Shown here: positions 9,139-56,479 of the stretch, piece by piece | Layout of the letters: every line of letters begins with the position of its first letter | How positions within the stretch are numbered: the first letter of the stretch is position 1 | IMG/VR virus record: IMGVR_UViG_3300001041_000009 | Coordinates: 62,001 to 118,479 of that record | Source: an uncultured virus (IMG/VR IMGVR_UViG_3300001041_000009) | Lineage: Duplodnaviria; Heunggongvirae; Uroviricota; Caudoviricetes | DNA length: 56,479 nucleotides | Direction: 5' to 3' (one strand) | Notes under the pieces: model-generated | Database searches by the model: none | What the model was told of the DNA's origin: nothing | Seen by the model: only the letters and a program-made list of their open reading frames with translations | Made by a program: the position numbers and the translations under genes

Positions 9139-12100
9139 TTTAATACCAATTAAGAAGTTTATTCAAGTTAATTCATTACAAGAAATCACTGAAATCATAA
9201 TATTTGAAAAAGGTAGTATACCAACATCTGGTGGTTTACTATCTACAAATATATTCGGTGTATCTGTTAATGAACGACGAGAAACTTATGCTTATATTAA
9301 ACTAAATGGGCACTTCTTACACCCATTTGTTTATAAGTTATTAAAACGTATGAATAGAAATTTTCAATCTATTGTATATGGATCAAAGAATTTTATAATA
9401 GATAAAAATGGACAATTGGTTGAAGCTGAGGAATCTGGTGAGACTGGATTAGAATTCTTATATAAAAATTGGGAAAAAATAAACTTTGAAAAGAATGCCA
9501 GTTCTATACGTAGTGAAAGAATTGACTTGCTGAGATCGTATGATAAAGATACTTTATTTACTGAGTACTGGATTGTAGTGCCAGCATTCTATCGTGATGT
9601 TAATTTACAATCAGCAACACAGGGTAAGATTAGTCATCATGAGATCAATGATAAGTACGCTAAATTATTAAGATTCGCAACTGTGTTGAGGAACTCCAAT
9701 AATTTTGATTTTGTACTTAATGGAACTAGGGCTAAGGTTCAGGAAGTCTTAGTAGAAATTTATGATTTGCTCAAAGGTAGAATAGAAAAGAAGAATGGAT
9801 TAATTAGAAAAAATTTAATGGGTAAATCGGTTGATTTCGGATCGAGGAGTGTGGATTTACTGCACGTAGCTCCTTAATTGTCGGGAATCTCCTTAGAACT
9901 TAAACCACTTAAAGTAACAATGTTTAAGTTTGGACAATCCGCAGCCAAGATTCTATCTAATAGAATAAGGTTCAACGACTATCACACGGAAATATGGTTA
10001 TATTAATTTACCGTGAGTTAGATACATTATTGTATTGAAATGGGAGTTCAGGAATTCTTAATTTCCTGAAGATATAGTCTAGTATCCTAATGAAAATTAG
10101 GGAAGTTCATGAGAGAACTGTATAGAGTTATATTCTATATGAATAAACGAATTTCTGCACCTATATTCAAAGCAAATAAACCATCTGAGATGCAAATAGA
10201 TTTTTATCATGTTGGTATTCCTCTTGCACAAACATGTTCATTATTTACACCATTTATAATAAATTGGGTTAAAAATTTCTTCCATAGAGAATTAGAGAAG
10301 GTTGGTAATAAGTATCCTGTAAGAAATCCGGACGGTTCCATGGGATATGTGAAATTAAAAGATCCCTCATTATATTTCAACGAAGAATATCTTAAAAAAC
10401 AAATTGATAGATTCATATTTAGTGTATCCGATAGATTTACACCAATTGAACTTCCCGTCGAGGAACCTAGATCTGATGGGAAGAAATTATATATGCGATT
10501 TATAGGAAAAGATTATAAACCAGGGGTTCCTGAAACTGAATCTCCCTTAGTACAAAGGAAGGCAACTTGGTGTGATATTTTATATCAAGCGGCAGTTGAT
10601 GTTACATCAGATAAAATGGTATTCGTTACGAGATATCCTATTTCAGATTATTTCAGTAGCTTTCCTAACAAAATATCAGTCCTAAGTACCCACCAAACTA
10701 TACCGATGTTTATTGGAAATAGAGTCTATACGAATTATCCTAGGATCGATCTTAGTTTACCTAAAGAAGAAATATCCACTCTATTTGCAGATACTGTGAG
10801 TATGTCAAATTTATATCTACCTGGTTTAAACGGAGATAAAAGTTGTTGTCTCCCTTTGCTAGAAATAGCTTAGTTAAAAATCCTGTGAACGCTTAACAGG
10901 CGGTGTATGGGTATCACAATACTCATGCTAACGGTAGAAGTGAAATAAGCATTGACGAATAAGCTTCGTAAGAGAACCTAAGGTCCTGAAATATGGATAG
11001 CTGGAAATACCGTGTCAAGCTTTAATTGATTTACGAAATTCATATATTGTAAAAAAATACTTTTATACTAACTTATATATAATAAGGGGGGTTATTATGT
11101 ATAATGATGATCTAATAATTGAATCGAAAAAACATTTTGGTGTAATATATATGTTGAGAAATAATATAGATGGTAAAATTTATATTGGTCAGACAATAAA
11201 TCTACATTCACGACTTAAGGATTATAAGTATAAAAAGCTTAATAGGAAATCGAATTTATATCATATTATAAAAATAGTTAATGAATATGGATTTAATAAT
11301 TTTGATTGCAGTATAATAGACACATGCACCTCTAAAAATGAAATGAACGAAAAAGAGGTATATTGGATATCAACTTTAAAAGCAAATGATCCTAATATTG
11401 GATATAATAAGAAAACAGGTGGGGTCGGTGGAACTATGAATAGTGAGTCTAAATATAAGATGAGTGAAAGTACAAAATTATTTAGACATTCTGAACAAAC
11501 TAAACGAGATAAATCTAAACCTATAATTGCATTTAAAGATGGGTTATTTCATATATTCCAAGGAGCGAAGTCATTTGCTGATTCAATAGATAGTAATAAA
11601 AGTTCTGTAACTCATGCGGTTCGATTTGGACGTATTATTCAAGGATATTTTGTATTCTATTGTGATAAAAATTCCCGTAATGAAATATTGATTAAAATAG
11701 AGTCTAAACTAAATGATACACCCAAAATAAAAACCCCCATGTTAAAATTACAATATGTGAAAATATGTAAATTAATTAGAGAAGATGTAGAGACTAACGA
11801 AAATTACTATCATATAATTATATAGTAGTTAGTAGTGTACTGACTAATTTGTGGGTTAGTTGGGAAGTGCAGGACACCTAATTAATAATTTATTATTATA
11901 CGGTGAAGATATAGTCCATGCCATATGAAAATATGGAGTTTACATGTACGACGGTCATTGTATTGCCGTATTTTCCTTAACTGTCGGGAAACTCCTTATA
12001 GCTTCTTTAATGGAAGATTGGACAATCCGCAGCCAAGTCTCTTATATAAGAGAAAGGTTCAACGACTAGAAGTAATTCGTAGATATAGTTATATATCGAA

Positions 12101-12378
12101 ATGGGAAAACAATAGATTTATTCTATTGAAGAGATAGTCTAATATCCTATATTAATATAGGGAAGTTCATAAGAGAACTGTATGGATTAAATATCTATAT
12201 GAATATTTTGGATCAGGTTACAGTAAAGGGTTTATTTAGTCAAGAAGCTAATAAAGAAGCTATTGAAATTATGACATCTAAAGCTCATATTCTAAATATC
12301 GCTGGTAGTAATATGAGAAAGACAACCAATGAGGGTGTTCATACACTATATATGATGACACGTTTCGAAAATGATTAA
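9128..12378 (+). CDS. Phage multisubunit RNA polymerase beta' N-terminal/catalytic subunit, 4 exons (9128-9852, 10150-10837, 11947-11955, 12211-12378; 529 aa)
   Basis: Spliced product reads GLIRKNLMGKSVDFGSRSV|ISAP, TRYP, and LNGD|YDG|DQVTV (NADFDGD equivalent). Confidence 0.92.
9853..10149 (+). ncRNA. Group I intron (no ORF, 297 nt)
   Basis: P1 GUGU/GCAC with U.G; core TTAATTGTCGGGAA, AATCCGCAGC, GTTCAACGACTA, AAGATATAGTC; terminal G; splicing restores frame. Confidence 0.92.
10838..11946 (+). mobile_element. Group I intron with GIY-YIG homing endonuclease
   Basis: P1 GGAGAU/GUCUCC; core GCTAACGGTAGAA, AATACCGTG, GTAGAGACTA, AAGATATAGTCC; ends ..TACATG. Confidence 0.9.
11097..11825 (+). 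CDS. Intron-encoded GIY-YIG homing endonuclease
   Basis: GVIYMLRN..KIYIGQT..R, E..WI, GYNKKTGG; 3' end overlaps intron P7. Confidence 0.92.
   Translation: MYNDDLIIESKKHFGVIYMLRNNIDGKIYIGQTINLHSRLKDYKYKKLNRKSNLYHIIKIVNEYGFNNFDCSIIDTCTSKNEMNEKEVYWISTLKANDPNIGYNKKTGGVGGTMNSESKYKMSESTKLFRHSEQTKRDKSKPIIAFKDGLFHIFQGAKSFADSIDSNKSSVTHAVRFGRIIQGYFVFYCDKNSRNEILIKIESKLNDTPKIKTPMLKLQYVKICKLIREDVETNENYYHIII
11956..12210 (+). ncRNA. Group I intron (no ORF, 255 nt)
   Basis: P1 ACGGU/GCCGU; P/Q/R/S elements present; ends ..TATTTTG before GAT CAG (DQ). Confidence 0.92.
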
Positions 12379-18729: not shown

Positions 18730-18880
18730 ATAAATACAATATCTCCATCCTGTCGTGTTAGTAGTACTTGTTAGATACCACAATAACTTAACCGTTAAGG
18801 TTCTTTAAACCGTCCGACCAACGGCGAAATCTCTATTTACGTTAGTTAATAAAGATCCTTTAAATGACTTATAAATATTA
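18730..18880 (-). ncRNA. Putative TnpB omegaRNA (scaffold overlapping tnpB 3' end plus guide)
   Basis: ~133-nt block 18748..18880 repeated at 27429..27561 with an abrupt divergence after ..AACACGACAGGA. Confidence 0.7.
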
Positions 18881-20037
18881 ATAGAAGCATTGTTATCCCT
18901 ACCATCTATATGTCCGCATATTGGACAATTAAAGATTCTTTGAGATAACTTTAACTTAGTTTTAAGTTTATGATTACATTCAGAGCATGTAATGGTACTA
19001 TTAGGTAATGCTAAAATATATTCACTACCATAAAAGTGACATTTATATTTTAACACCTGTGTAAACATAAAGTCACCAACTCTGTGTATACCTCTATTTA
19101 TACGCGTATTACCATCGGACTCTGTTAATAACTCTTTAAAACTAAACTCATCAACTATTACGTTTCTATAAGTCTTAGCTAAGAATGTAGATACCTTCTG
19201 AATATAATCCATTCTGATATTCACTATTTTGACGTGAATATCATTAAGTTTGGTTCTCGCTTTTATATAGTTCTTTGATGGGTTACGTTTATCATACTTC
19301 TTTTTAGAAACTATTACTGAGAGTTTATCAACTTTCTTCTCTAGTTTCTTAATAATTCCCTTCGGAAATTTAGGATTTATGATATCGTTTCCATCAAAAC
19401 AAACTACTGGATTATGTATTCCTAAATCTATACCTACCATATTTTTCTTATGTTTATGCTTTGGGATATCTATTTCATAAGTGAATGATACATAATATTT
19501 AAAATTCTTCATACTAATAGTCATTGTTTTTATATCATAGTGATATAAAAAGCTTATATCTTCAAAAGTTTTCAATGGCATGTGACCGTATTCTCTATTA
19601 ATAATAAAAGAGAATAACTTCTTATCAATAATTTTAACATTACCTTTATTCGTCTTGTATATTCTAAAAGAACCATTTCCATGAATCTTTCTTTTAAAAT
19701 GTAATTTACATCGTTTCTTGTCTTTAATATCTTTAAAGAACTTATTAATAGCTATATTAAAATCACTAGCCACTTCATTCTTTATTGACTTATTATACTC
19801 TTGAGTCCATTCAAATCCCGGTTCCTTTTCTTTCTTAGAGTATATATGAGTAATATAATCAAACTTATCAAAGAACTTCTTTAATGTTTTATCAATAATA
19901 TTACCATTATGCTCTAAAAGGGTATTAAAATATTCTAAAGCATTATTGTATATGAATCTTCTATATCCAAAGCATTTGTTTAAATATATCTCTTGTTCTT
20001 TAGTTGGTCGTATTCTCGTTTTAAAAGTCTTAATCAT
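18805..20037 (-). CDS. tnpB: TnpB RNA-guided endonuclease (free-standing, no tnpA)
   Basis: KTFKTRIRPTKEQ HTH; RuvC GIDLG / VDE / RDNNASINI; CSEC..CPICG zinc finger. Confidence 0.93.
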   Translation of the reverse strand: MIKTFKTRIRPTKEQEIYLNKCFGYRRFIYNNALEYFNTLLEHNGNIIDKTLKKFFDKFDYITHIYSKKEKEPGFEWTQEYNKSIKNEVASDFNIAINKFFKDIKDKKRCKLHFKRKIHGNGSFRIYKTNKGNVKIIDKKLFSFIINREYGHMPLKTFEDISFLYHYDIKTMTISMKNFKYYVSFTYEIDIPKHKHKKNMVGIDLGIHNPVVCFDGNDIINPKFPKGIIKKLEKKVDKLSVIVSKKKYDKRNPSKNYIKARTKLNDIHVKIVNIRMDYIQKVSTFLAKTYRNVIVDEFSFKELLTESDGNTRINRGIHRVGDFMFTQVLKYKCHFYGSEYILALPNSTITCSECNHKLKTKLKLSQRIFNCPICGHIDGRDNNASINIYKSFKGSLLTNVNRDFAVGRTV

Positions 20038-20125
20038 TTATCTTCACCCCCTTTCTTATATTATTTGTTATAAGTATAATAATATCTTATTAGGAATGAA
20101 TTATTAAGACTACTGATTAAGTTAT

Positions 20126-20157
20126 TTCTCTAAGTTTCCTTAAAGCACAGACTATAT
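20126..20157 (-). other. Group I intron remnant (P7'-P9) upstream of tnpB
   Basis: ATATAGTCTGTGCTTTAAGGAAACTTAGAGAA, 32 nt identical to 55215..55246. Confidence 0.85.
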
Positions 20158-21768: not shown

Positions 21769-23858
21769 TTATAATTGATTCAAGAAATTAAGAAACTCAT
21801 CGGATATCATATCAGAGTTAATATCCAATGTAGTACCCAACTTGTCTCGATTATCATAATCAACACATGTAAATGTTGTATTAAGAATAGTTGATAATAG
21901 ATTAAGTATTAGATTAGATTTCTTTAATTCTTCTAAAGTTGAAAATTTATCTTGCATTAATGATTGATATATAGAAGAATTTTCAATCTTCATTAAGAAT
22001 TTAGTATTTTGAATTGTACGAGTATTTAATTTACCTTCAATGTTACTTGTTAAAACCTGGGGTAAGTAAGTATTTCCTTGGATTTGTAATTTACGTTTAA
22101 GAAGTATTAGTAAGGTTAAATATTGTCTTCGGGTTAATAGATTAAGATCTCGATAATTACCAAAATGTCTAGCATAGAAAAAGAATATGAGACTAACATG
22201 AAATTTATTAATGTGATGATTGATCTTATAATATTCTAATTCATCTTCACTGATCTTAACTTTCATTTTATTCTTAATTCTCTTAATAGTTTTCTTTATA
22301 TTAATCCCAGATAATATAATTAAAGATTCATCAATCTTATTACTGTTAATCTCAAGCTTATCTAATCCTGATAACTTTATATTCATATAGATTATAACTC
22401 TATACAGTTCTCTTATGAACTTCCCTAAATTACTTTAGGATAATAGACTATATCTTCTTCATAATATTATGAAGTTTCTCCACTTCGATTTAGTTATAAA
22501 TCTACGAGTCACACTCTAGTCGTTGAACCTTATTCTTGTATTAAGAATCTTGGTTGCGGATTGTCCAATCTTAAACATTATTACTTATAGTAGTTTAAGC
22601 TATAAGGAAGTTCCCGTCAGTTAAGAGAAAACCGGCTTCTATAAAAAACCGTCGAGATCTTTTTTATTGTTTAACTCAATTAATGAGAATTCATAAGGTT
22701 CTCGTATGAAGTAACCAAGCTGTTTTTCTAAGCATCGTGTTCACATAGGTTGTTAATCTATGCAGTTCTCTTATGAACTTCCCTATAGTTATATAGGATA
22801 TAAGACTATATCTTCTCATCTTAATTAAGATGAGTTTTCTTATTTCAATCTAAACTATAGATCTACGAGTCACACTCTAGTCGTTGAACCTTATTCTTAT
22901 ATAAGAATCTTGGCTGCGGATTATCCAATCTTAAACATTATTACGATTAAGTAGTTTAAGCTATAAGGAACTTCCCGTCAGTTAAAGAAAAGGTGGCATT
23001 AGATTATTTTACCACACTGTTAAAACTGATAATGTTTTTATCAAATGTATATTTGAACATAGTTTCAGAAATTATCTTCTCCTTTAATAGTTTATCAAGC
23101 TCTATTAACGGATCTGTTCCAAATATTTCTCGCTGGTCCCATATAACTCGATGTTTTGTAGCATTCACATTAACTTTAGCCAATGTAGATACCCATAGTT
23201 TATTATAGATATCAACCTCTTCATCATATTTATACATATAGAACAATCGTTCATAAAATTGAAAGATATAATTCGGTTCCTTTAACATAGATGACGAATT
23301 GATAAAATGAAATATGATAGGAACCATTATCTTCATACTCATTGAGATCATCATTAATAGTTTTGCATGTTCATTTGTAAATTCCATTGATTTGGTATAT
23401 TTAATACCATTATGTGAAGTAACATCAACATGGTAATTGTCTTCTACTAAGTGTCGTATTTTATTCTTTAATGATTCTGTAAACAGAATAGAATACAACA
23501 TCTTGATGAAAGATATTAACTTAATAGACTTTTTCTTATTGTCAATAATGTATTTGAGTTTTATATATGACAATAATAACTCATTATCTAAATCATAATA
23601 CTTAATGAAATAATTTAGATAATGACATATACCTTTAGATATAGTGCCATCTTTATTCAGTACATGATCCAAACGTTTCACATATGATTCTTTTTTAATA
23701 ACAAAAGTATTTAAACTTGTTATATTATCCTTGTTAAATATTTTGTCAAATGGTATTATTACTAGTTTTCCATCATGTCGGATAATCACATCCCTTTCTT
23801 CAGGTTCCCATTCATCAACTAATATAACTGAACGTATATCATCATTTGACATTAACAC
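21769..23858 (-). CDS. Putative non-virion RNAP promoter-specificity subunit (AR9 gp226-like), 3 exons (23858-23011, 22732-22648, 22374-21769; 512 aa)
   Basis: Splicing gives continuous FNSVV|LEKQLGYF..KDLDG|LSGLDKLE; early motif upstream; two genes downstream of the chaperonin as for AR9 gp228/gp226. Function is inferred from synteny and size. Confidence 0.55.
22375..22647 (-). ncRNA. Group I intron (no ORF, 273 nt)
   Basis: P1 CGGU/GCCG; P/Q/R/S on minus strand; ends ..ATAAAG. Confidence 0.9.
22733..23010 (-). ncRNA. Group I intron (no ORF, 278 nt)
   Basis: P1 GUGGU/GCCAC; P/Q/R/S; ends ..AACACGATG. Confidence 0.9.
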
Positions 23859-43599: not shown

Positions 43600-43604
43600 A
43601 TTTT

Positions 43605-44051
43605 TTAACGTAAACGTTGTCTGTTTTTGAAATGACTCTCTTTTCTAAACCACTGTTGAGATTCCTGCATTTTGTTTACGATAGATGCTGGAATAGTATC
43701 ATATGTGAAAGCCATATCATATAATTTTATCATAATATCAAACATGTTGCCAACTTTTTCAAAACAATCTTTAGAAACAAATGAATCACTACCGTTAATA
43801 CTCATAAATGCAATATCATCATTCTCAAGAATTTCCATAGCTTCATGAAGACTAATCACATTAACACTCAATGATTTACAAAATTCTGCAGTATCATCAA
43901 TAAGATCATTGAAATATTCATAATACCCACCAAGTAATTCATGTACTGGATCGAAATCAAGACCAATGACGTTCCAGTGTAAAATTTTTAGATTATGTTG
44001 AAATAATATTTGCGCAGCCATTAATCGTTGTAAACAATCCAATATTAACAC
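43605..44051 (-). CDS. Dps/ferritin-like protein
   Basis: HWNVIGLDFDPVHELL..IDDTAE ferroxidase motif. Confidence 0.82.
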   Translation of the reverse strand: MLILDCLQRLMAAQILFQHNLKILHWNVIGLDFDPVHELLGGYYEYFNDLIDDTAEFCKSLSVNVISLHEAMEILENDDIAFMSINGSDSFVSKDCFEKVGNMFDIMIKLYDMAFTYDTIPASIVNKMQESQQWFRKESHFKNRQRLR

Positions 44052-44092
44052 ACCACCTAATTATTTTTTATTATAATGTTGATCGTTATAGA

Positions 44093-44818
44093 TTAGATAA
44101 CATAGAAAGCTAGATTATCTAAATGGAATAGATCCTTCATTTTCTCCAACATATCTTTTCTTTCACTAGCGGCAGAAGACCAGTCATCGATTTTTAAATT
44201 AATAGTACCGTATGCAGTTTGAATTTCACTATAATGTTTTAATGTATTATATAAGAATGCCTGTATATCAAAAGTTGCTAATTCATAAAAAGTTTGCCAT
44301 GTAGTTGCTGAAATAGATGATAAATTGGGCGCGTGTTCGACGGCAAAAGATATTGTAACTTCTCCATAACTTGTAGCAAAATTATATAAATACATTATAT
44401 TTGGAGATTCAAATTTGAAAGTAATTGCTGGTGCTGCCATTGATACCAAATTAGCATTAGCTTGGGTCATCATTAACCCCTCATACGAATCGACATTATC
44501 ATCATAAGAGGGAGATAAATAACCATTTCCAAGTAATTTACTTCGAGGACTTACATTTTGGATATATAATATACGCCGATCCCCAAATATATCCGGTAAT
44601 TCATATTTAGATTTAGTATATAATGATTCTAAACATACTAAAGTCTTTAGATCAAAAACCATTTCAAAAATCTGTGGGCTGAATGGACTAAATGTTTTTA
44701 AAGTTTTTAGTTTTATAACATCATATAAAGCTTGATCTGCATTTTTAAAAGGTAATGCTAATCCATAAATGCCCAGATCCATTTTTATAGAAGTCATCAG
44801 TTCACTCAAATTCATCAT
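44093..44818 (-). CDS. Probable head-tail (neck) structural protein
   Basis: 241 aa in the structural cluster. Confidence 0.45.
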   Translation of the reverse strand: MMNLSELMTSIKMDLGIYGLALPFKNADQALYDVIKLKTLKTFSPFSPQIFEMVFDLKTLVCLESLYTKSKYELPDIFGDRRILYIQNVSPRSKLLGNGYLSPSYDDNVDSYEGLMMTQANANLVSMAAPAITFKFESPNIMYLYNFATSYGEVTISFAVEHAPNLSSISATTWQTFYELATFDIQAFLYNTLKHYSEIQTAYGTINLKIDDWSSAASERKDMLEKMKDLFHLDNLAFYVI

Positions 44819-44910
44819 AAATTTATCACTCCTTATCGTTTAGTTATTATAATAATGTAATACATAAAGAATGATATAAGTGATTTAAATCACTTATATC
44901 ATTCTTTATA

Positions 44911-45879
44911 TTAGACCAGTTCGACATGAATAGTGGCCGACGCACCTTGTCCGAAAATCGAATCAACAAGGACCTTCATTTCTACAGCCTCATCAACATC
45001 CACTTCAAAAACTTGTGCATTACTCTGACCACCATCACCAGACAATCTGAGAGTTATTAATGTGCCTTGATGATATTCACCCGAAACTTGATTTAGAAAA
45101 AATGGTACGATGTTCAAAGCCGGAGCGCTCCTGAGATCGGTTACGGACAATTTAACGTAAATAAAAGCCTTGTGTTTATCTACAGTCGATACTGGTGTAA
45201 TGCCAGTATGGCTATATCCATTGTTAGGAACTAGGATTAGGTTGGTGCTCGCAATACCAGTTCCTACCGCTCCCACATTTACAACACCAGCAGCCCCACC
45301 AGCTTCAACCACACCTACTGCTGTAATAGCACATCCGGCCAAACGCTCAGCTTCAGTAATTCGAGCAACCCACAATGGCCCAGCTACATCAGTTGAGAGA
45401 AATATGTCGTAAAACTCTGCATTACTAGACCGTGGAATGGTTATATCTATCGATTTGTCAACTGTTGGAGTAACTGTTACTATGGCACTCGATCCTGCCG
45501 TACCATATCTATTGGCCGGAGCAACAGCAATCCCATGCGCTACAGCAGTTAATAGTCCTGCAACCTCTGCCTGATCGGCGGCAGTTATCGTAATCTTTGG
45601 AATTTTGTCGACTACTGTTATGGCATTGCGATGCGCTACACCAGTATTACGGGCCCTAATAATTGTAGTATCAGTATCAACAACATCATCAATTACATTG
45701 GAAATGATCTCAATATCATTAGATGCAATTATATTCTGGATATTAATGAACTCATCATCAGTATATGTCCTAGTAAAAGGACCGTCCTCAGATCTAAATA
45801 ATTCTCCCAGTATCTCGGTAACTGTATCCGCATTAGGTACAGTAAAGGTTAATATATGTTTCATACCACACAACTCCAT
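44911..45879 (-). CDS. Probable virion structural protein
   Basis: Ala/Val/Thr-rich, beta-rich; late motif at 45894..45905. Confidence 0.5.
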   Translation of the reverse strand: MELCGMKHILTFTVPNADTVTEILGELFRSEDGPFTRTYTDDEFINIQNIIASNDIEIISNVIDDVVDTDTTIIRARNTGVAHRNAITVVDKIPKITITAADQAEVAGLLTAVAHGIAVAPANRYGTAGSSAIVTVTPTVDKSIDITIPRSSNAEFYDIFLSTDVAGPLWVARITEAERLAGCAITAVGVVEAGGAAGVVNVGAVGTGIASTNLILVPNNGYSHTGITPVSTVDKHKAFIYVKLSVTDLRSAPALNIVPFFLNQVSGEYHQGTLITLRLSGDGGQSNAQVFEVDVDEAVEMKVLVDSIFGQGASATIHVELV

Positions 45880-45962
45880 TCATAATATTTTTTTATAGTA
45901 TTGTTTATAATAACGATTATGAAATAATACAGATGGAGTTACACCACCTCTATTATTTCATT

Positions 45963-46796
45963 TTATAAGTGACTCATGAACATATTAATGTCACGTTTGA
46001 TTTTATCATCAATATTTACAAAGAATGTATTACCATTTTCTTTTAAAATAACATGTTTAAAATCTTTAGATAATTGCATTGATTCCATTGATACTTCACA
46101 TACATTAGATATTAATTTAACATTTGTGGATTCCATCTTAATGAAATCTATTAGTTGAGATTCTTTTACGGCAACTGTTAGATTCTCAGTAATAGTATTG
46201 CCAACAGTTCCTAGATTCTTAATAATTTTTTCTATGGGTTTTGTCATATCACGATATGCTCCATTATGACTAGGTAAAATAACTCTATCGTATGTGACAA
46301 TATGTGCTCTAGATCTCATTATTTGAGAACCATCACCTTGTTTTGCTAATTGAGCTAATGCCCTTAGACTAAAGGCCGGTTCTAAACCTTGAAGAATATT
46401 TTTGGTCATCTGAGTTCCGTACATTCCATCATCGAGTGTTTCAATTTCACCCATGAGTTTAATACCATTGAGACTAAATGAATTTATTATATGACTTGTT
46501 AATTTTGGATTTATAGTAAGAATTCGTTTAACTTCATCTGTATCAGGATGACCAGCCTCACCGGCCCATGATCGCTTAAGCATAAGTTCACTAATATGTG
46601 GTGCTTGTAATGACTCCATCATTGGTTCTAAAATATATTTACGTCTGTTTCTATTTAGTATATTAAACTCTTGAAGACATGTTTGGAATCTTAAAAAGAA
46701 AGAATTATTCCGATCAAAGACTTGTAAATTTATTGGTTTAACAGGGTCCATTGTGGACTCCATTACGCAATAAGCTACTACTTGTTGTTTATACAT
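45963..46796 (-). CDS. Prohead protease (T4 gp21-like)
   Basis: NRNRRKY, GEAGHP, SH, FSLRALA, TYDRVILPSH; start after AAGGAG. Confidence 0.85.
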   Translation of the reverse strand: MYKQQVVAYCVMESTMDPVKPINLQVFDRNNSFFLRFQTCLQEFNILNRNRRKYILEPMMESLQAPHISELMLKRSWAGEAGHPDTDEVKRILTINPKLTSHIINSFSLNGIKLMGEIETLDDGMYGTQMTKNILQGLEPAFSLRALAQLAKQGDGSQIMRSRAHIVTYDRVILPSHNGAYRDMTKPIEKIIKNLGTVGNTITENLTVAVKESQLIDFIKMESTNVKLISNVCEVSMESMQLSKDFKHVILKENGNTFFVNIDDKIKRDINMFMSHL

Positions 46797-46915
46797 ATTA
46801 CATCTACTCCTTTCAGTATTACCAGTTTCATTATGATAATGTTTATACTGGCCGATTATAAAGAAGTCTTTATTTTTTAGCATACAACAAATATATAATA
46901 AAAAACTATAATGGG

Positions 46916-48580
46916 GTGTTGATGATGAATGTTAATATCCAGCGTATATTGGATGCTAAAAAACCATCTCAAATTAAACAAAGATTTGATTCATTAAAAG
47001 AAAATTATAGTGTTGTAGATTCTATTAAATACTTAGATTTCATTAGACATCAGGACTTAAAAAGTATATTAGAGAATTCTCAATATATTTATTCAGAACC
47101 CAGATCAGGAGCTGATTTCTTATTAACTGTATTAAAGACAAATGATTTAACTCTAAATGAATTGATAGTTCAAAAAGAGGGATTAACTAAAGTATTTGAT
47201 CTATATAAAACTGTAGAGAGTATAAATACATTAAATCCTGAATTCATATCAACATTAACTGAATGTGGAAGATTACTTGATTCATTGATTAATAACAAAA
47301 CAGATCCATCATATATAATGAAAGAAGCTTTATATAATTTACATTTAAATTTCTTACCTCAACCTATATTAGAATCTTCATTTAATAAAGATATGGATCA
47401 GATCATTCAGAATGTAAATTCAGAACCGCAAGTTATGGATAAATACCAAGAGTTATTGAGGGATATTAAATCAAATAAAAGTAAAGTCACCGCATCGCAC
47501 TTAGTAGGTATACTTATTAGGAATACATTACTAGTTATTGGTCTTACTGTTACTTTGGCGACAGGATCAGTATTATTGATTGTTAGCCTACCTATGGCTA
47601 TAGTCCATAAATTAATCTCCGATAAAATTAACATAAAATATATAGATTCATATATAGCCGTAATTAATAAACAAATTCAATCAATTGAAACTGAGAAAGG
47701 GCCATCGGACGATAATAAAAAGAAATTATTAAATGATTATCAACAATCGTTAATTGAAGCTAAGAAAGTATTACTTGATTATAAAATAAAGAATCTTGAT
47801 ACTACGCAGGTGAAGAAATATCTAAAAGAAAGTTTATCAACTAGTAGTCAAATTATTGGTTATGATGATGATGATTTAGATCTCGACGACGATTTAGAAG
47901 ACGCTGATGAATTTAATACAGAATTATTTATTGATGATAATGACGAACTTGGTACATTAGAACATGCATTCAGTGTGGGTTTTATTACATTATTTGGAGA
48001 TAATGAATCTCAGGTAACTATAGAGAATTTTAATCAATTAATGAGAACCTCTGATAAATATTCTGCTATACTTGAAGAGAGTACTGTCCGTAAACTCGCA
48101 TTAAAACATGAAGAGGGTGTTAAGAAATTAGTTCATGGTGCACGAAAAATTGGATCGGATTTGGGGCGTACCCCTAATATCACAAAAAGAACTGTAGGTC
48201 ACATAGATACCCTTGTTAGTAATACTATTAATGCTGTTAAGGATATGGATAAAAATGAAAGACGTACTCGGATTGTTGAAGGTGCGTTTAAAGCCAAATT
48301 ATTTAAAATATTAAAAAATGGTATTGCTTTAGGTGTTGTATTTGCTGTAAGCCCCGCTATAGCTGTAATAGGATTACTCGGAGCTATAGCGATTGATCAA
48401 AAATTAGATCGTGATGCTAGACAAGAGATTCTGCATGAATTAGAAAATGAATTAAAAATGTGTGATGAAAAGATTGAAGATGCTCGGGGTGATCGAAATA
48501 AAGAAAAGAAATATCAACTAATGCGTATAAAACATAAACTGGAACATGATATAGGAAGAATAAAGTATTATCTAGATTAA
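46916..48580 (+). CDS. Probable virion head/internal protein
   Basis: 554 aa; late motif at 46886; ILES/ILEE sites. Confidence 0.55.
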   Translation: MLMMNVNIQRILDAKKPSQIKQRFDSLKENYSVVDSIKYLDFIRHQDLKSILENSQYIYSEPRSGADFLLTVLKTNDLTLNELIVQKEGLTKVFDLYKTVESINTLNPEFISTLTECGRLLDSLINNKTDPSYIMKEALYNLHLNFLPQPILESSFNKDMDQIIQNVNSEPQVMDKYQELLRDIKSNKSKVTASHLVGILIRNTLLVIGLTVTLATGSVLLIVSLPMAIVHKLISDKINIKYIDSYIAVINKQIQSIETEKGPSDDNKKKLLNDYQQSLIEAKKVLLDYKIKNLDTTQVKKYLKESLSTSSQIIGYDDDDLDLDDDLEDADEFNTELFIDDNDELGTLEHAFSVGFITLFGDNESQVTIENFNQLMRTSDKYSAILEESTVRKLALKHEEGVKKLVHGARKIGSDLGRTPNITKRTVGHIDTLVSNTINAVKDMDKNERRTRIVEGAFKAKLFKILKNGIALGVVFAVSPAIAVIGLLGAIAIDQKLDRDARQEILHELENELKMCDEKIEDARGDRNKEKKYQLMRIKHKLEHDIGRIKYYLD

Positions 48581-48600
48581 CTGAGGGGGTTATAAATAAA

Positions 48601-49281
48601 ATGGACTTTTTGGATATATTGATGGAGGCAAAAACTGGAATATCTTCTAAAAATAAAAAACCTCCTAAAACAATTCAGATTAAACCTGATAAAGAAACTG
48701 ATGATTACACAGATAGTATTGATGATAAACCAGATGACCCCCCTGACACTAATAGTGATGGAGATCCAAATACCGAAGAAGATGATGCAACAGACTATAC
48801 ACAAGATGATGAAGTCGTAGAACCTCAAACTGATGAAGACCCTGATACTACAGATGACGAAACTACTGATTATACGGAAGATGATGGTGAAGGTGGTGAT
48901 GAAAACTCAGATAATCCAGACGATCTTGGTGACGCTACTGATAACCCAGACGAAGAAACACCAGAAGATACTGAAGATGGATCTGAGAATGAAAAGAATA
49001 ACATAATTATGACAGACTTTATAAATTTGTATAATCTAACTAATAATACTATCAGTAAACTATCCAATGTTGATAAAACAAATATCTTTATAAATAAAAT
49101 ACTTACCCAAGTTCTTTCCAATTTAGTATTAATCAAAAGACATATATATAATTTTATAGTGTTTAAGTTTTCTAATAATAAATATGTTAATAATTTATAC
49201 CAATATAACTTTTTTACTGAGGCATTTAGAGTAAATATTGAAATGCTTAAGAAAATAGATGTTTTTATCGCTAATTCTTAA
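48601..49281 (+). CDS. Acidic head scaffold-like protein
   Basis: D/E-rich with TDYT repeats, directly upstream of the capsid gene. Confidence 0.5.
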   Translation: MDFLDILMEAKTGISSKNKKPPKTIQIKPDKETDDYTDSIDDKPDDPPDTNSDGDPNTEEDDATDYTQDDEVVEPQTDEDPDTTDDETTDYTEDDGEGGDENSDNPDDLGDATDNPDEETPEDTEDGSENEKNNIIMTDFINLYNLTNNTISKLSNVDKTNIFINKILTQVLSNLVLIKRHIYNFIVFKFSNNKYVNNLYQYNFFTEAFRVNIEMLKKIDVFIANS

Positions 49282-49326
49282 AACATTTAAATAAAAAAAC
49301 TTAACTGAAGGGAAGTGTTATAGACT

Positions 49327-51036
49327 ATGTACGAATACTTGGAAGCTAAAAACCATACAGCAGTAATCGGCTCTTTTACAGTCGATAAACATTCCGATTT
49401 TAAAAACGGAGTGAAAAGTCTCCTCGAAAGTTTTCGGGGCGCTTATTCGGTAGACGCGATTGATGATCTCGTAAAGATTCTTAAAGTGGACACACTTAAA
49501 GAAGATTATAAACAACGCCTCATTGGAGATGTTTTAGAAGAAAGTTTTGAGGACCCTTACTACGCTATGCTGCCACAAAAATTGGAACAGCTTTTTGAAA
49601 ACTCCGCCTTGGAAATCATTAAAGAGGCATCGTCTGTCGGTAATATGTCACCAATTGTTGGCATTTCATTGCCTATTTTGAAAAAGAACTTCATTGAGTG
49701 TCATTCCAAAGACATTGTGATGACCGAAGTTCCAACCAAACCAATCATCAAAAACGCCTTCGAGCGGAAATTCCTAAAAGACAAAGCAGGTGCCAAGTAT
49801 TACATTCCAGATATTTTCTACGACGACAGTTACAAAACTGTCCTTGAGAAAACAAAAGGTAAGTTGATCAGCACGGCGTTTTACCCAACTGAGGGAACAC
49901 TACCTATTCAGGATCTGGCCATTATGACATTATCAGGCGGGACTATGGAAACCCGTGATTCGCTGGCTTATGACTTCTGTATTGAAGCTGTCAAGATTAC
50001 AGTTCCTGATGAAGCAGGAACTGGGACAGTAAGTAAAGTCATATCAGGGTTAAATATCCAACCAAACTTTGGAGCAAATAATTCATTTGTCTTCAGTGTT
50101 ACGGCCACCGGTGATAATGATGCAATTGTCAAAGACAATATCATGGGACAAGTTGATCAATATTCCGGTTTGGTATCCGTTGCATCTAGTGCTGGTAAAA
50201 TTACTCAGGTAAGATTTGGCGGCCATTTATCCAACGAGAATAACATGGAAACTGTCGAACTCGATCGCGAAAGAGAAACCATGGAGTGGAAGATTCCTGA
50301 CGGACAGAGAATCAACACTGGTTTAACTATTGAGCGAATTAAGGATAACAAAGCTTTGCTTGACTTGGATATCACATCCGAGATCATTGCGGATATGAGT
50401 GAAGTCTTAACTCAGTTCGAAGACAGTACCGTTATGTCATTCATGGATGACAGCCTCGCTAAATGGACAGGTAAAAAGAATCTTCCTTTCGGCTACACTG
50501 AAGGATTTGTTGAAACTTCCTCATTCAGTTGTATTCCTCCGGCGAACGTGTTCGTTACGAACTCTTCGTGGATTGCCACAGAGTTGAAATTTAATCTTAA
50601 TCGTCTTATTGATCGGCTGAAAACTAAGCTGAAAACCACGGACCTCATGTTTGTTGTATACGGCAATCCGAATAACATCAGCCTTATTCAAGATGATGTG
50701 AAATGGGTAATTGACGAAAACACGAAAATCGGCGGCATCCAGTTGGATTACAGTTTCGGTGTCATGACCGGGAACAAAAACCGAATCCATGTTGTTAGCT
50801 CATTGAAAGTTGCTGTGTCTAAGGGCCTTAGGATAATCGCTTATCCATTAAGTAAGGAAATCATTACATTTAAGCATTACAAATACAGCTTAAACATCGA
50901 AAACATTTACCGCAACGCGCTGACCCCATTAACTCCAAACATTATGGGAACTGCCCGTTACTTGACCACGGAAGTCCTTCCAATTCAAGGAGAATTCTCT
51001 TTGACCAACAACGGCTTCTACAGTACCACAGCCTAA
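49327..51036 (+). CDS. Major capsid protein
   Basis: Codon usage typical of high expression; late motif; T4 gp23-like C-terminus (TPLTPNIMGTARY); strong terminator after it. Confidence 0.75.
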   Translation: MYEYLEAKNHTAVIGSFTVDKHSDFKNGVKSLLESFRGAYSVDAIDDLVKILKVDTLKEDYKQRLIGDVLEESFEDPYYAMLPQKLEQLFENSALEIIKEASSVGNMSPIVGISLPILKKNFIECHSKDIVMTEVPTKPIIKNAFERKFLKDKAGAKYYIPDIFYDDSYKTVLEKTKGKLISTAFYPTEGTLPIQDLAIMTLSGGTMETRDSLAYDFCIEAVKITVPDEAGTGTVSKVISGLNIQPNFGANNSFVFSVTATGDNDAIVKDNIMGQVDQYSGLVSVASSAGKITQVRFGGHLSNENNMETVELDRERETMEWKIPDGQRINTGLTIERIKDNKALLDLDITSEIIADMSEVLTQFEDSTVMSFMDDSLAKWTGKKNLPFGYTEGFVETSSFSCIPPANVFVTNSSWIATELKFNLNRLIDRLKTKLKTTDLMFVVYGNPNNISLIQDDVKWVIDENTKIGGIQLDYSFGVMTGNKNRIHVVSSLKVAVSKGLRIIAYPLSKEIITFKHYKYSLNIENIYRNALTPLTPNIMGTARYLTTEVLPIQGEFSLTNNGFYSTTA

Positions 51037-51057
51037 AACTTGTGTGTATAAAAGCAA

Positions 51058-51094
51058 AAAACGAGAACTCTTCTATAAGAAGAGTTCTCGTTTT
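51058..51094 (+). terminator. Intrinsic terminator after capsid gene
   Basis: AAAACGAGAACTCTTCT-ATA-AGAAGAGTTCTCGTTTT. Confidence 0.75.
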
Positions 51095-51124
51095 ACTATT
51101 ACTTTTTAGGAGGATGATTTAAAA

Positions 51125-52366
51125 ATGACAATAGGAAATAAGTCTCAGGATTTCTTACTGATTGAAAAATGTTTTTCGGCTATAAAGGACAAGGTAGATA
51201 TTATTAATAACTTATCAAAGATATCAACTATAATCAAAAGATCATTTGATTTAACATTTAATATCTCTATAGTGGAGAACGATACGAATCAATTTTTTGG
51301 TATGAATATATATCCAACTATTAATACTATCAACTTAATGATTGATGCCATTCTAACTCAAAAATCTCATGCTGATGTTGTTGTTGAAATATGGAATGGT
51401 AACAAAGAATGGTTTGTTGAGATTGATTCCATTATATTATACGACAAGAATCTCAATGCAAATCCAGCAGAAATTACTGCTGTGTTATTACATGAAATCG
51501 GCCATGTAGTATATTCCAATTCTATTCCCCAAAGAGTAAATTCTATTTTGCGTTATCAAATAATGCAAACTGATTATGCCGTTAAGAAATTATGTGAAAA
51601 CAATAAGATCCGTAAATTATTTGATCTAGTAATAGCCGAAGCTTGTAGTTCAAAGAACTTCCATTATACCAACGTACAATCTGAGAGAATCGCAGATAAT
51701 TTTGTTGTTAAAATGGGTTATGGAACTGAGCTTGATAACTTCATCACTAAATTAATTGCAACTAAAGGGAATAGTTTGATTAATAGAAGTTCTGGAGAAA
51801 TGGACGGTGATGTTAAAACTATTATACTATGGAGTGTTGATAATATCACTGAACTTGAATTTAGAAAGAATAAACTAAAACATGCTATACAAACCGAATT
51901 ATATAGAAATCCAAGTCATTTCATTAGGGTTGTTTTTAATTCAATCAAACAAGCTTTTTTTGGTATGGATGTTAATACTTATAAAAATATGGTAACTGAA
52001 CAATTTATCATTGATACTAAACTTAAGATAGTTAATGAGTCCTTCCTTGATTGGTTTGATGTTGCGGGTAATGTCAAAAAGATTAGTCAGATCGATATTG
52101 ACATGATTCTAATTGAAGTTGACAAAATTCAAAATAACGACGACCGCATTTATGTCTTAGATAGAATCTATGATAAATTAGATCTAGTTAATTCATCTAT
52201 TGATATTATTAATAAAGGTGATATCACTAAAGTCAAGCAGTCGAAACAAACTTTGATAAATCTTAAAACTCAACTTGAAAAAACTAGAGAACGTATTATA
52301 CAAATGCAGATCAAAGAAAAGCAATATGGTGTATTTATTAAATATCCAAAAGGATATGAGTCATAA
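51125..52366 (+). CDS. HExxH zinc-peptidase-like virion protein
   Basis: LLHEIGH..ERIADNFVVKMGYG. Confidence 0.6.
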   Translation: MTIGNKSQDFLLIEKCFSAIKDKVDIINNLSKISTIIKRSFDLTFNISIVENDTNQFFGMNIYPTINTINLMIDAILTQKSHADVVVEIWNGNKEWFVEIDSIILYDKNLNANPAEITAVLLHEIGHVVYSNSIPQRVNSILRYQIMQTDYAVKKLCENNKIRKLFDLVIAEACSSKNFHYTNVQSERIADNFVVKMGYGTELDNFITKLIATKGNSLINRSSGEMDGDVKTIILWSVDNITELEFRKNKLKHAIQTELYRNPSHFIRVVFNSIKQAFFGMDVNTYKNMVTEQFIIDTKLKIVNESFLDWFDVAGNVKKISQIDIDMILIEVDKIQNNDDRIYVLDRIYDKLDLVNSSIDIINKGDITKVKQSKQTLINLKTQLEKTRERIIQMQIKEKQYGVFIKYPKGYES

Positions 52367-52384
52367 AAAAGAAGGTGGCTCTTT

Positions 52385-54971
52385 ATGGCTAGAAAATTTG
52401 ATTATGATGTAGACACCAGAAATATATCATTTCTACAGACTGCAATGGATTTACGACAACTTGGTATTAAGAATAATATGTTCTTTTTGAAACTCTATGA
52501 TATGTCATTAAGGGGAGTCGATCCATACTCCCCTTTTTTAACCGACGAACAAATATTCAGAATAATTAATGAGTGTCTTGTTAATCCATGGTATTTTTTA
52601 AGGGAAGTTTGTTTAATCCCAGATCAAGGTGGAACTGGAATTCCGTATCAATTAAATAGGGCGAATTTAGCTGCTACTTGGTGTTTCCTAAATGGAATTG
52701 ATTTATATGAGGTAATTCCACGTCAAATAGGTAAAACACAGTCTGCTTTGGCAATTATTGATTGGAGCTTTTTGTTCGGGACAACAAATTCAGAAATGAT
52801 GTTTTTAAATAAGCGTCAAGAGGATGCTAATGATAATTTGTTGCGAATGAAAAAACAGAGAGATTTATTACCTAAATATTTACAATTTAAAGTTGTTTAT
52901 AATGATGAGGGTAAAAAAGTAGAAGGTGACGACAATGTCAAATCTCTCTCCAACCCAACTAATAATAATAAAATAATTGCCAAACCATCGGCTCGTTCAG
53001 TAGAAGGAGCTGAGGGTATCGGTCGCGGATCAACTCAGCCGATTCAGTACTGTGATGAAGTTGAATTTACCCTTTTTATTAAAACTATAGTTGAAGCATC
53101 GGGTCCAGCATATCTTACAGCCTCTCAAAATGCCAAAAGGAATAATGCCCAATATGGACGTATTTTCACAAGTACACCTTTAACTAGGGCTATGTGATGG
53201 TGATATCACATAGGATTTTCTTTAATTGCGGGGAACCTCTTAGAGTCTAGACTATCAAACTATTATATTTCTATAATAGTGGCTGGGAGTAATTAACCTA
53301 GATTAAGATAATAATGTTTAGAATTGGACAATCCGCAGCCAAGTCTCTGTTTAATATTTAAATAAGATTATACATTCAATTAAACTAATTAATAAAAGAA
53401 GGAGGAAATCGATACTATGCATATTATAATAGCTATGGAAAAGGAAGAATTCAGGCCAGTTACTTATCCGAATATACAAAAAGATAGGTATATGATTAGT
53501 AATTATGGGAAAGTGTTTGATATTAAGAAAGATAAAATACGGAAAATTAATTTTAGAGATAAAAATGGATATGTTAAGATACATTTAAGAGATAATGATA
53601 ATGTCAGAAGATATATAGGTGTGCATCGATTAGTTGCATGGGAATTTTGTAAAGGTTTTGATGAAACTGTCGGGAGGATTATTGTAAATCATAAAGACAG
53701 TAATACTGAAAATAATTATTTTGAAAATTTGGAATGGACAACATATTCGGAAAATAATTTACACGCGGTTGATCATGGGAATAATTATTGTAGAGGAATT
53801 AGTAACAATAATAATGTTTATAGTGAGGAAACAATTAGAGAAATATGTAATATGCTGACACAAAAGTTATCTATGATGAAAATTATGAATTTTTATGGTT
53901 ATAAAGAAAAGAAAGAAAATAATAGTTTTTACGCACTAATTATTGCAATAAAGCATAGGAAACTTTGGAATCACATTAATAAAGAATATAACTATTAAGC
54001 AGAGAAAGGTTCAACGACTAAATAGTAGGGCTCAAGTGAGTGGGTAAAAAAATCCCTTAAATCGAAATAAGAAACTCTCTTATTGATGAGTAATTACTTT
54101 ATTAAGAGATGAAGATATAGTCTAGTATCCTAAAGAAACTTAGGGATGTCCGTATGGACTATATGAATTAACGATTCATATGAATATAAACGGGAGATTT
54201 AGATACTTCAGCAGGTCAGGACGCATTAAAGATTATCGCTACAACTTGTCGTTGGACTGAAAAGTTTTATGATTGGACTAAAGAAGATTTAGATGAATAT
54301 ATTGCAATTAATTCTGAAAGTGGAATCGTCTATATTGAATACCAATATCAACAACTTGGTAAAGATGAAATATGGTTTAAAAGTATCTGTCAGATCTTAC
54401 TGAATAATCCAGTAAAGATTAAAAGAGAGGTCTTCCTTCAAAGAATGAGGGGTTCATCCGAATCTCCTTTCCCCGCAGAAGATTTGGCCACTATTGAAGA
54501 AATGAAGAAGCCAATTAAGGAAGAAATATTTATAAATAAACTATTTAAATTAGATATATATGAACCCTTGAAGAAAGATAGGATATACTTCGTTGGAGTT
54601 GATACCTCTAATGGTTATGGTAAAGATAATACTGCCGTTACGGTATTTGACCCATATACTATAAAACCTGTTGCTGAATTTAAATCACCATATATAGGTG
54701 TAGTTCAGACTATTAAATTTATAACTACTCTTATCAAACATCATATCCCTAAGTCTATATTATGTATAGAACGTAATTTTAATGGTGAAGCCATAATGGA
54801 TTCTTTAAAATTAACAGATATACGCTCTAATTTATACTTTGATAATGATAAAGATCTTGTTTCATCCGGACTTGATGATAAACTTGACTCAGAAGGTATG
54901 TTAAAATTAGAATCAGCTAGACGAAAACTATATGGTGTTTGGACCGGAGATAAGTCCAGAGAAGTTATGAT
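52385..54971 (+). CDS. terL: Terminase large subunit (exons 52385-53179, 54193-54971; further exon(s) beyond window)
   Basis: PRQIGKT Walker A, YCDE Walker B, FTSTP|GDLD, nuclease FVGVD and CIERN. Confidence 0.9.
53180..54192 (+). mobile_element. Group I intron with HNH homing endonuclease in P6 loop
   Basis: P1 CCU/GGG; P/Q/R/S; TCTCTGTTTAATA..TATTAAGCAGAGA brackets the ORF; ends ..TAAACG. Confidence 0.92.
53417..53998 (+). CDS. NUMOD4-HNH homing endonuclease
   Basis: YMISNYGKV; VHRLVA..VNHKDS..NN..NLEW..N..HA. Confidence 0.92.
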   Translation: MHIIIAMEKEEFRPVTYPNIQKDRYMISNYGKVFDIKKDKIRKINFRDKNGYVKIHLRDNDNVRRYIGVHRLVAWEFCKGFDETVGRIIVNHKDSNTENNYFENLEWTTYSENNLHAVDHGNNYCRGISNNNNVYSEETIREICNMLTQKLSMMKIMNFYGYKEKKENNSFYALIIAIKHRKLWNHINKEYNY

Positions 54972-56479
54972 TCATGTATGAGTCACGTTGCATAGTAATA
55001 TGTAATTGAAACTACTTTAATTGCGGGAAACTCCTTAGTGCTTAAACTACAACAAAGTAACAATGTTTAAGATTGGACAATCTGCAGCCAATGATCTATT
55101 TATAGATTTAGGTTCAACGACTATCCGTAAAGGAGTAGGGCTCAAGTGAGTGGGTGAGAATCCCTTAAATCGAAATGGGTGGCCCCATTATAATTATTAT
55201 TATAATGGGTGAAGATATAGTCTGTGCTTTAAGGAAACTTAGAGAATAACTTAACCGTAAGTCTTACTAATTCATTCCTAATACAATTATATTATACCTT
55301 TAACAAATAATATAAGAAAGGAGGTGAATAAAAATTGATTAAGACTTTTAAAACAAGAATACGACCAACTAAAGAACAAGTAACATATTTAAACAAATGC
55401 TTTGGTTATAGACGATTTGTATATAATAATACTTTAGAGTATTTTAATAAGATCCTAGAATTTAATGGTAATATTGTAGATAAAGATTTAAGGAAGTTCT
55501 TTGATAAATTTGATTTTATTACTCATATATATTCTAAGAAAGAAAAGGAACCTGGATTTGAATGGACTGGAGAATATAATAAGTCTATAAAAAATGAAAC
55601 GGTTAGTGATGTTAACTTAGCCGTTAATAAGTTCTTTAAAGATATTAAAAATAAGCAGCGATGTAAACTACATTTCAAAAGAAAGATTCATGGAAATGGT
55701 TCTTTTAGAATATATATTAAGCAAGCTGCTGTTAAGATTCTCGATAAAAATAAATTCTCTTTTATTATTAATAGAGAATATGGGCATATGGAATTAAAAA
55801 CATATGAAGATATAAGCTTCTTATATCATCATGAGATGAAAACAATGAGTATTAGTATGGAGAATTTTAAATATTATGTATCATTCACATATGAAATAGA
55901 TAATCCAAGTCATAACCATGAGAAAAATACTATAGGTATAGACCTAGGGATACATAATCCAGTAGTTTGTTTTGATGGAAAAGATATCATAAATCCTAAA
56001 TTTCCGAAAGGGAAGATTAAGAAACTAGAGAAGAAAACTGATAAGCTTTCGGAAATAGTTTCTAAGAAGAAATATGATAAACGTAATCCATCAAAGAACT
56101 ATATAAAAGCGAGAACCAAGCTTAATGATATTCACGCCAAAATAGTGAATATTAGAATGGATTATATTCAGAAGGTATCTACATTCTTAGCCAAGACCTA
56201 TAGAAACGTAGTAGTTGATGAATTTAGTTTTAAAGATTTATTAACAGAGTCTGATGGTATTAAGCGTATTAATAGGGGTATTCATAGAGTTGGAGCCTTT
56301 ACGTTTACGCAGGTGTTAAAATATAAATGTCGTTTTTATGGTAGTGAATATATTTTAGCAGAACCGAATAGTACCATTACATGCTCTGTTTGTAATCATA
56401 AAGTTAAAACTAAAATGAAGTTATCTCAAAGAGTCTTTAATTGCCCACAATGTGGACATATAGATGATAGAGATAACAA
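54972..56479 (+). mobile_element. Group I intron carrying tnpB (IStron-like; 3' end beyond window)
   Basis: P1 UGAU/GUCA; core TTAATTGCGGGAAA, AATCTGCAGC, GTTCAACGACTA, AAGATATAGTC; P9 hairpin followed by tnpB. Confidence 0.88.
55335..56479 (+). CDS. tnpB: TnpB RNA-guided endonuclease, intron-encoded (partial)
   Basis: TTG start after AAAGGAGGTG; close paralog of 18805..20037; GIDLG, VDE, CSVC..CPQCG, DRDN at window end. Confidence 0.92.
   Translation, partial: MIKTFKTRIRPTKEQVTYLNKCFGYRRFVYNNTLEYFNKILEFNGNIVDKDLRKFFDKFDFITHIYSKKEKEPGFEWTGEYNKSIKNETVSDVNLAVNKFFKDIKNKQRCKLHFKRKIHGNGSFRIYIKQAAVKILDKNKFSFIINREYGHMELKTYEDISFLYHHEMKTMSISMENFKYYVSFTYEIDNPSHNHEKNTIGIDLGIHNPVVCFDGKDIINPKFPKGKIKKLEKKTDKLSEIVSKKKYDKRNPSKNYIKARTKLNDIHAKIVNIRMDYIQKVSTFLAKTYRNVVVDEFSFKDLLTESDGIKRINRGIHRVGAFTFTQVLKYKCRFYGSEYILAEPNSTITCSVCNHKVKTKMKLSQRVFNCPQCGHIDDRDN

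Follow-up and report, generated by a model that had tools for sequence, protein, structure and literature searches.

The final 56 kb (56,479 nucleotides, nt; hereafter the window) of the 118-kb uncultured viral record IMGVR_UViG_3300001041_000009 (G000) contain ten group I introns, nine of them members of one family and one an unrelated intron with a GIY-YIG open reading frame (ORF). We conclude, with a probability that we put at about 60%, that the family introns are part of a set of about 50 paralogues in one phage genome whose cores appear to evolve in concert through recombination, and that some whole copies may in addition have moved to sites fitting their guides. Pure intragenomic expansion, as proposed in a preliminary description of the window, is too simple; seven of the introns lack an ORF, as it stated, and its single family of ten reduces to nine, the tenth (10838-11946) being of another lineage.

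The window genes match multisubunit RNA polymerase (RNAP) subunits, major head protein and terminase by homology, and their top cultured matches are jumbo phages of Staphylococcus, Listeria and Bacillus (AR9/PBS1 kind, 38–44% identity). According to the annotations of relatives, the gene at 9128 encodes the N-terminal half of the virion β′ subunit and the gene at 37723 the C-terminal half of the non-virion β′ subunit. A second record of the same phage, G028, was found by scanning for the right end of the IStrons described below. Both G000 and G028 agree with a metagenome contig of 272,509 bases, with zero mismatches over the compared stretches of 5–6 kb; the two records are therefore parts of one phage, which is AR9/phiKZ-like and 272.5 kb long. 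We counted at least 49 family introns (16 in G000, 22 + 1 in G028 and 10 in the readable gap) and two introns of another type, at least 51 in 272.5 kb; the census covered about 232 kb, and all counts are lower bounds. Cargo is absent from 37 of the 49, the remainder holding HNH-type ORFs (five, two confirmed by Pfam and three by sequence likeness), TnpB (five) or an antisense ORF (two); the nine in the window comprise seven ORF-less introns, one with HNH and one TnpB IStron, in agreement with the early view that cargo is interchangeable. Host genes, named from homology and known motifs, include both RNAPs, DNA polymerase, two helicases, gyrase B and terminase. Because intron-bearing genes are thus not confined to late genes, we reject the suggestion that splicing gates late gene expression. 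For comparison with relatives we used a catalogue of 146 rows, of which 19 were dropped (incomplete, duplicated or mis-anchored) and to which the introns of G028 and of the gap were added. Statistics were calculated on 47 of the 49 family introns, the tree of 150 cores left out the eight introns of G025, and sites were labelled by junction scoring and hand curation.

The cores group by genome. Twelve of the 47 sites are occupied in another phage, and at all 12 both identity measures place the core nearer to a genomic sibling than to the foreign intron of that site, which in the gap-free measure still ranks high at three of the 12. At the terminase site that AR9 also occupies, 40 of 46 siblings are closer in core than the AR9 intron, and at a 14th shared site core identity is 0.85 to a sibling and 0.73 to the site-mate. 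Across the clade, the sibling core prevails over the site-mate in 50 of 53 comparisons. The result named beforehand as contrary to intragenomic expansion, namely introns closer to site-matched introns of other phages than to their siblings, did not occur. In the tree of 150 cores, the 47 introns of the phage require six label changes compared to a mean of 40.4 for shuffled labels (0 of 500 shuffles as low), 27 of them form one supported clade in a bootstrap that has not settled, and the nearest core neighbour lies within the same phage for 42 of 47.

The ends, by contrast with the cores, can follow the site. At four of the 12 shared sites (at one by a small margin), the foreign site-mate has a more similar 5′ segment than any sibling; one β-subunit intron combines a sibling-type core with 5′ and 3′ ends like those of the site-mate, among them an unusually short P9 region, and the 14th shared site displays the same end pattern by eye. 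At least 14 of the 49 sites are occupied in relatives. With ends inherited along with the site at several of these, much of the likeness between siblings reflects homogenization of old residents and not spread to new sites. The proposed spread to new sites is supported for some whole copies, at sites that fit their guides. Homing introns pass through a cycle in which homing is followed by loss of the nuclease. A loop insert of at least 395 nt is present in one or more carriers at nine of the 14 shared sites, as ordinary homing with later loss of the nuclease would lead one to expect.

Within the phage, the introns are mosaics. Adjacent segments agree on the nearest sibling in only four of 42 introns at one boundary and in 0 of 42 at another, and a PHI-like test for recombination yields p = 0.001. 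Exact tracts of at least 60 nt are shared by six of 861 intron pairs, and four of these six pairs lie within 3 kb of each other and differ in their exon ends (null expectation 0.5, p = 0.0014); at a threshold of 45 bases the neighbour effect has p = 0.056. Long exact tracts are also present in relatives (156 nt in G005, 76–79 nt in AR9), and G009 likewise exhibits the proximity effect (p = 0.03). The early suggestion that recombination among the introns shuffles peripheral modules is borne out by the segment disagreement, the PHI-like test and the exact tracts. Concerted evolution denotes paralogues that are closer to each other than to their orthologues and that carry conversion tracts, and both features were found here. 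The mosaic and tract data look like those of a multigene family undergoing ectopic conversion, and we infer such conversion as the probable event.

A second, guide-linked pattern is superimposed on the first. Introns without P2 follow GGT or GGC in 11 of 13 cases, compared to one of 34 for the other introns, and eight of the P2-less introns form a clade (support 82/98); the P2-less set being largely one clade, its p-value overstates the evidence. The two introns at GGT sites that retain P2 are both old residents with site-like ends. One pair of introns in two different genes is 94% identical, and CGGT precedes both. In the 3′ half, which is distant from the guide, eight of 32 nearest-sibling pairs share at least four exon-end bases (null 2.1, p = 0.001). 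This pattern fits guide-directed insertion; it would fit equally a conversion extending through P1, in which guide and exon end add homology.

We propose the following sequence of events. Sites would first be occupied and kept when co-infecting phages exchange introns by DNA homing, with HNH proteins encoded in the loop, TnpB or free-standing nucleases acting in trans as the driving force; the nuclease would be lost later. Ectopic recombination or gene conversion among the roughly 50 paralogues in the replicating genome would then overwrite cores and peripheral modules and move cargo in and out, P1 remaining tied to its own exon. Occasionally, a whole sibling would be copied to a site with a guide-fitting exon end, or would replace the resident there. 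The five IStrons would have followed a separate route to sites ending in GAT, probably with a TnpA of the host.

Several observations weigh against this interpretation. The exon-end signal is absent from the 5′ core alone (8 of 33 pairs, null 6.4, p = 0.30) and from the 3′ end alone (p = 0.24), the Mantel correlation is weak (r = 0.09, p = 0.06), and the nearest-sibling signal appears in 0 of five other genomes. Five of the 47 introns have a foreign nearest neighbour, tree support is rough, recombination violates the assumptions of a tree, and the site labels are in part hand-set. Eight of the 12 shared sites have no site-inherited 5′ end, and at these eight the need of P1 to pair with one and the same exon accounts for part of its likeness. 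The proximity effect is missing in G008 and G005 (p = 0.25 and 0.96), and splicing and mobility are predictions from sequence.

A bolder proposal, which we put forward tentatively and would not bet on, is that ORF-less ribozymes of AR9-like jumbo phages are actively transposing. Their own guide would pick the site in a reaction of the reverse-splicing type that needs no intron- or phage-encoded enzyme, and recombination would then make a self-renewing pool in which cores and cargo (HNH, TnpB, other genes) are swapped. If true, these phages would be the first system for watching the spread of group I introns without a nuclease.

We consider it unlikely that the family arose solely through recent expansion by guide-directed reverse splicing at 4–6-base matches in mRNA, with shared sites as independent hits on permissive spots and fixation through a host reverse transcriptase or RNA-templated repair. 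Such an expansion would account for the confinement of the P2-less subfamily to GGT/GGC exon ends, for 3′-half sisters with common exon ends, including the 94%-identical pair, and for a closest relative that is nearly intron-free; it leaves unexplained the site-inherited ends around a sibling-type core and the long tracts joining neighbours with different exon ends, and its signal is lacking in the five other genomes. The search for a reverse transcriptase advocated in the preliminary description returned no RVT_1 match in G000 or G028 (219 kb of phage searched), and none in seven of eight relatives, including three complete intron-rich ones, so that reverse splicing would have to proceed without a visible enzyme. 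The eighth relative, G024, encodes a reverse transcriptase at G024:C1:118118-118744 (457-amino-acid frame), a few kb from an intron-rich region.

Still less probable is independent homing at each site followed by loss of the nuclease, the likeness of the cores deriving from one local pool and a common folding environment without exchange between copies. The loop inserts at shared sites and a tree in which pools track host lineage are compatible with it, and homing by the nuclease of an RNAP intron has been shown for PhiPA3 gp210 (PMC11620839). Convergence would hardly produce exact tracts of 60–92 nt between paralogues at different sites, nor the incongruence of segments and the shared deletions (short P5, P7.1 form), and same-site cores differ more than different-site cores of one genome.

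The third alternative, mobilization of the ORF-less introns by IStron machinery (TnpA in trans, with the TnpB guides of a free copy and a lone scaffold), appears very improbable. The phage does hold five IStrons with family cores, a common left end and 5′ exons that all end in GAT (TTGAT, ATGAT, AGGAT and twice TAGAT, exact TTGAT thus in one of five), together with two extra guide loci. The IStron guide varies with the target, being GUCA where the site is TGAT and GUCU where it is AGAT or GGAT, and the right end ...ACGACAG is followed by an in-frame exon or a start codon in all three complete IStrons. RuvC and zinc-finger motifs are present. In these respects, and in having no TnpA, the elements match non-autonomous IS605 IStrons (bioRxiv 2023.11.20.567912; PMC4227781). 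As IStron left or right ends occur in 0 of 42 other introns, only 11 of which follow GAT, transposition of IStrons does not explain the ORF-less introns. TnpA is lacking inside the IStrons, and Y1_Tnp has no match above cut-off in ten records, G000 and G028 included; a match in G028 below cut-off (E = 1.2e-4) was rejected, the 258-amino-acid ORF bearing no signs of an insertion sequence. In the sequences compared, neither of the two free guides has a convincing target next to the motif. One follows a free-standing copy of the TnpB module (18750-20157, minus strand, ORF 18805-20037), which lacks the ribozyme core and starts at the P7 3′ strand (S element). This guide matches the S element of the introns at 13 of 16 bases; a role in targeting the introns was discarded, with no GAT motif before those targets and many core positions able to draw attention, and the match remains unexplained. 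The other belongs to a lone IStron right end, a remnant of a guide-RNA scaffold (27431-27596, minus strand), whose 11-of-12 match to the β′ gene of a relative is about at chance level by our own estimate. A scan of prokaryote genomes retrieved no relatives of the TnpB.

An assembly artefact, in which collapsed or chimeric repeats simulate mosaics or extra copies, is barely credible: shared core stretches (median 22, up to 92 nt) do exceed usual k-mers, and against this the 272.5-kb contig agrees with both records, Logan contigs of three runs (one possibly the source) have 0 differences on pieces of the window, every window intron restores the frame, and the same tracts occur in the cultured phage AR9. 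A search of four DNA runs for an intron-less junction at 37700-56479 gave none among the matches listed and is uninformative.

The assignment to group I was assessed on the window introns. The segment AGGTTCAACGACTA is exact in all nine family members; GGAYAATCCGCAGCCAA is exact in six and has at most two mismatches in nine, AAGTTCATAAGAGAACTG is exact in four and has at most two mismatches in six, and GCTCAA(A)GTGAGTGGGT occurs in three. A further motif of the preliminary description, written with two wildcards before CGGGAA, has 0 exact matches in that form, the true spacing being one or no extra base. These shared motifs (P, Q, R and S) hardly depart from the Rfam consensus for group I, and the Q+R pattern matches at least 124 viral stretches, giant viruses among them. 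We therefore rejected them as proof of kinship and tested kinship on whole cores. Near-identity, as first described, applies to the motifs only; whole cores of the nine are 73–89% identical over aligned columns (median 80%). Five of the ten window introns reach the gathering score of Rfam RF00028 in the Infernal-type check that had been advised. Pairing of P3 at five or more of six positions is found in 37 of 47 introns by a rough script. Each intron was confirmed to have an intact core and its own P1 guide, with at least three further exon pairs in 44 of 47 compared to 13% for pairing with other exons, a comparison that favours the own exon, on which the register was chosen; at the 5′ splice site, one of the 47 has C.A in place of U.G. 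All complete window introns end in G. By core, P1, terminal G and restored frame, the nine elements fit group I, and we predict them to be self-splicing. Subgroup IA is defined by extra hairpins between P7 and P3 (P7.1/P7.2); an insert between R and the P3 3′ strand is present in all aligned members, and a placement in subgroup IA2 is at most tentative. Unlike homing introns, which contain a nuclease, 37 of the 49 have no ORF.

Intron boundaries were set against intron-less homologues and adjusted by 1–2 bases using the joined frames. The virion β′ N-terminal gene has a P2-less, ORF-less family intron at 9853-10149 (plus strand, after ...GSRS-V), a site also occupied in G003, G004 and G005, with P2 absent in all four carriers. 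Farther downstream, the intron of the other lineage (10838-11946, plus strand, GIY-YIG ORF 11097-11825) splits the catalytic DxDGD motif; it is followed by a 9-nt exon for Tyr-Asp-Gly of the motif GDYDGD (11947-11955, plus strand) and by a P2-less, ORF-less family intron (11956-12210, plus strand), at whose site G003 and G005 have an intron with P2 and a different core. The sigma-like subunit gene on the minus strand holds two sister introns, both ORF-less and P2-less (first 22733-23010, second 22375-22647), separated by an 85-nt exon. The non-virion β′ C-terminal gene holds three ORF-less family introns on the plus strand: 38529-38807, where G004 has an ORF-less intron and G005 an 827-nt loop insert; the P2-less 38844-39122, preceded by a 36-nt exon; and 39142-39416, preceded by a 19-nt exon. 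In the terminase gene, the intron at 53180-54192 (plus strand) carries a NUMOD4-HNH ORF (53417-53998) in its P6 loop and shares its site with the fourth terminase intron of AR9; it is followed by an IS605-type IStron (54972-56479, plus strand), a family ribozyme with TnpB (ORF from 55335) and no TnpA, which is cut by the contig end and whose 5′ exon ends ATGAT.

Removal of the introns in silico opens frames of 529 (virion β′ N), 662 (non-virion β′ C) and 512 (sigma-like) amino acids, the last without a stop, and a terminase frame open up to the IStron. The joined proteins are collinear with intron-less homologues at 63–71% identity and read GLNGD-YDG-DQ and IDSL-GGRKSLIMNKLV-MGRSGH-FAR across exons of 9, 19 and 36 bases. 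In the phage, the two introns of the other type each precede a 9-base exon within a polymerase catalytic motif. Both polymerases are cut alike in DxDGD (window 10838-12210; L280, G028 ~58.1-59.5 kb), by an other-type intron, a 9-base exon (YDG or FDG) and a P2-less family intron, the L280 copy in G028 being the one with the C.A pair. Motif A of the DNA polymerase (L310, ~3700) has a 6-base exon (Met-Gly) flanked by two ORF-less introns.

Intron load is specific to lineage. The exact R motif is present in 22 of 27 records searched and absent from G006, G012, G013, G014 and G023; relatives have 27 (G008), 18 (G005), 14 (G009), 12 (G004) and one (G001) copies. The closest relative by RNAP, G001 (76%), has one family intron, G006 and G013 none. 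S-motif matches at 14 extra loci in six relatives revealed no further clear family intron, and a β-subunit fragment as query added one relative only. AR9 and PBS1 belong to the same phage group and share the intron family. AR9 has 17 core R-motif matches with at most one mismatch, about a third of the load of the window phage, and eight of 13 parsed cores have their nearest neighbour within AR9. Its terminase, annotated in five pieces, contains four ORF-less family introns (L329), two of them 88% identical in core, with one site in common with the window.

Published work already covers phages heavily loaded with introns, similar introns in tandem, nucleases encoded in introns of jumbo-phage polymerase genes, and IStrons in phages. 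Staphylococcus phage Twort has three introns in one gene, orf142 (IA2), two of them highly similar with a short exon between (PMC10136302); this is one gene versus about 50 sites here, and the passages covered contain no site-versus-genome comparison. Jug phages have on average 18.5 group I introns (~206 nt) per 360–402-kb genome with splicing shown (PMC12880540), and Zeta crAss-like phages up to 14 (PMC7886860), compared to at least 51 in 272.5 kb in the window phage; the passages covered do not address core homogenization. CdISt1 (CdiIStron) combines an IA2-type intron and TnpB with a TTGAT-like 5′ junction motif and has non-autonomous copies (bioRxiv 2023.11.20.567912), and phage c-st carries IStrons, TnpB-only forms being on record (PMC4227781). 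The IStron ribozyme core of the window phage is in part 73–74% like C. difficile plasmid records; in contrast to CdISt1, its IStrons have no tnpA remnant, a varying target with matching guide, and a core common to ORF-less siblings. For fungal ribosomal DNA introns, where relatives likewise occupy different sites whose flanks fit, spread by reverse splicing was proposed (PMC1299323), and a review proposes it for group I introns without direct experimental evidence (PMC3984707); here the hosts are phage protein genes, and recombination between copies is the stronger signal. A literature search by title and abstract start, which did not extend to most subscription journals, to supplements or to the genome papers of AR9 and the Staphylococcus jumbo phages, found no paper on homogenized phage-intron cores. 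The elements themselves are of known kinds; what appears new is their number and the signs of concerted evolution combined with guide-linked copying.

With many genomes of 0 to 51 introns, shared sites and the cultured AR9, this clade makes it testable how nuclease-free group I introns come to occupy new sites and are maintained there. If cores are homogenized, trees of phage intron cores would track the genome and not insertion history, and nuclease cargo could move between sites through recombination. RNAP, polymerase and terminase genes of such phages will be mis-annotated unless exons of 6–9 bases are joined.

Further observations were made alongside. In the window, a truncated second TnpB-type gene and two free-standing endonuclease genes (2643-3026, 4769-5599, 30260-30964) are candidates for homing in trans. 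In L277 (G028 ~17-18.6 kb), an IStron lies between the Shine-Dalgarno sequence and the start codon, and splicing would restore the spacing. Two β-subunit introns hold antisense ORFs in the P6 loop (L001:18713-19156, 147 amino acids; L002:4067-4432 minus, 121 amino acids), neither with a Pfam match; for the longer, model features suggest a likeness to Arr-type ADP-ribosyltransferases and to viral hypothetical clusters (score 0.93), which is no more than a lead. Outside the clade, family-like introns occur in two near-identical copies in an Hsp70-like gene (56-kb contig L303), and viral contig L104 has five within 1.7 kb. About 15 paralogous repeat-protein genes (…IKNP…EVQLAAV… repeats) stand in a row at L001:296-15229, and another lies in the window at 36963-37601.

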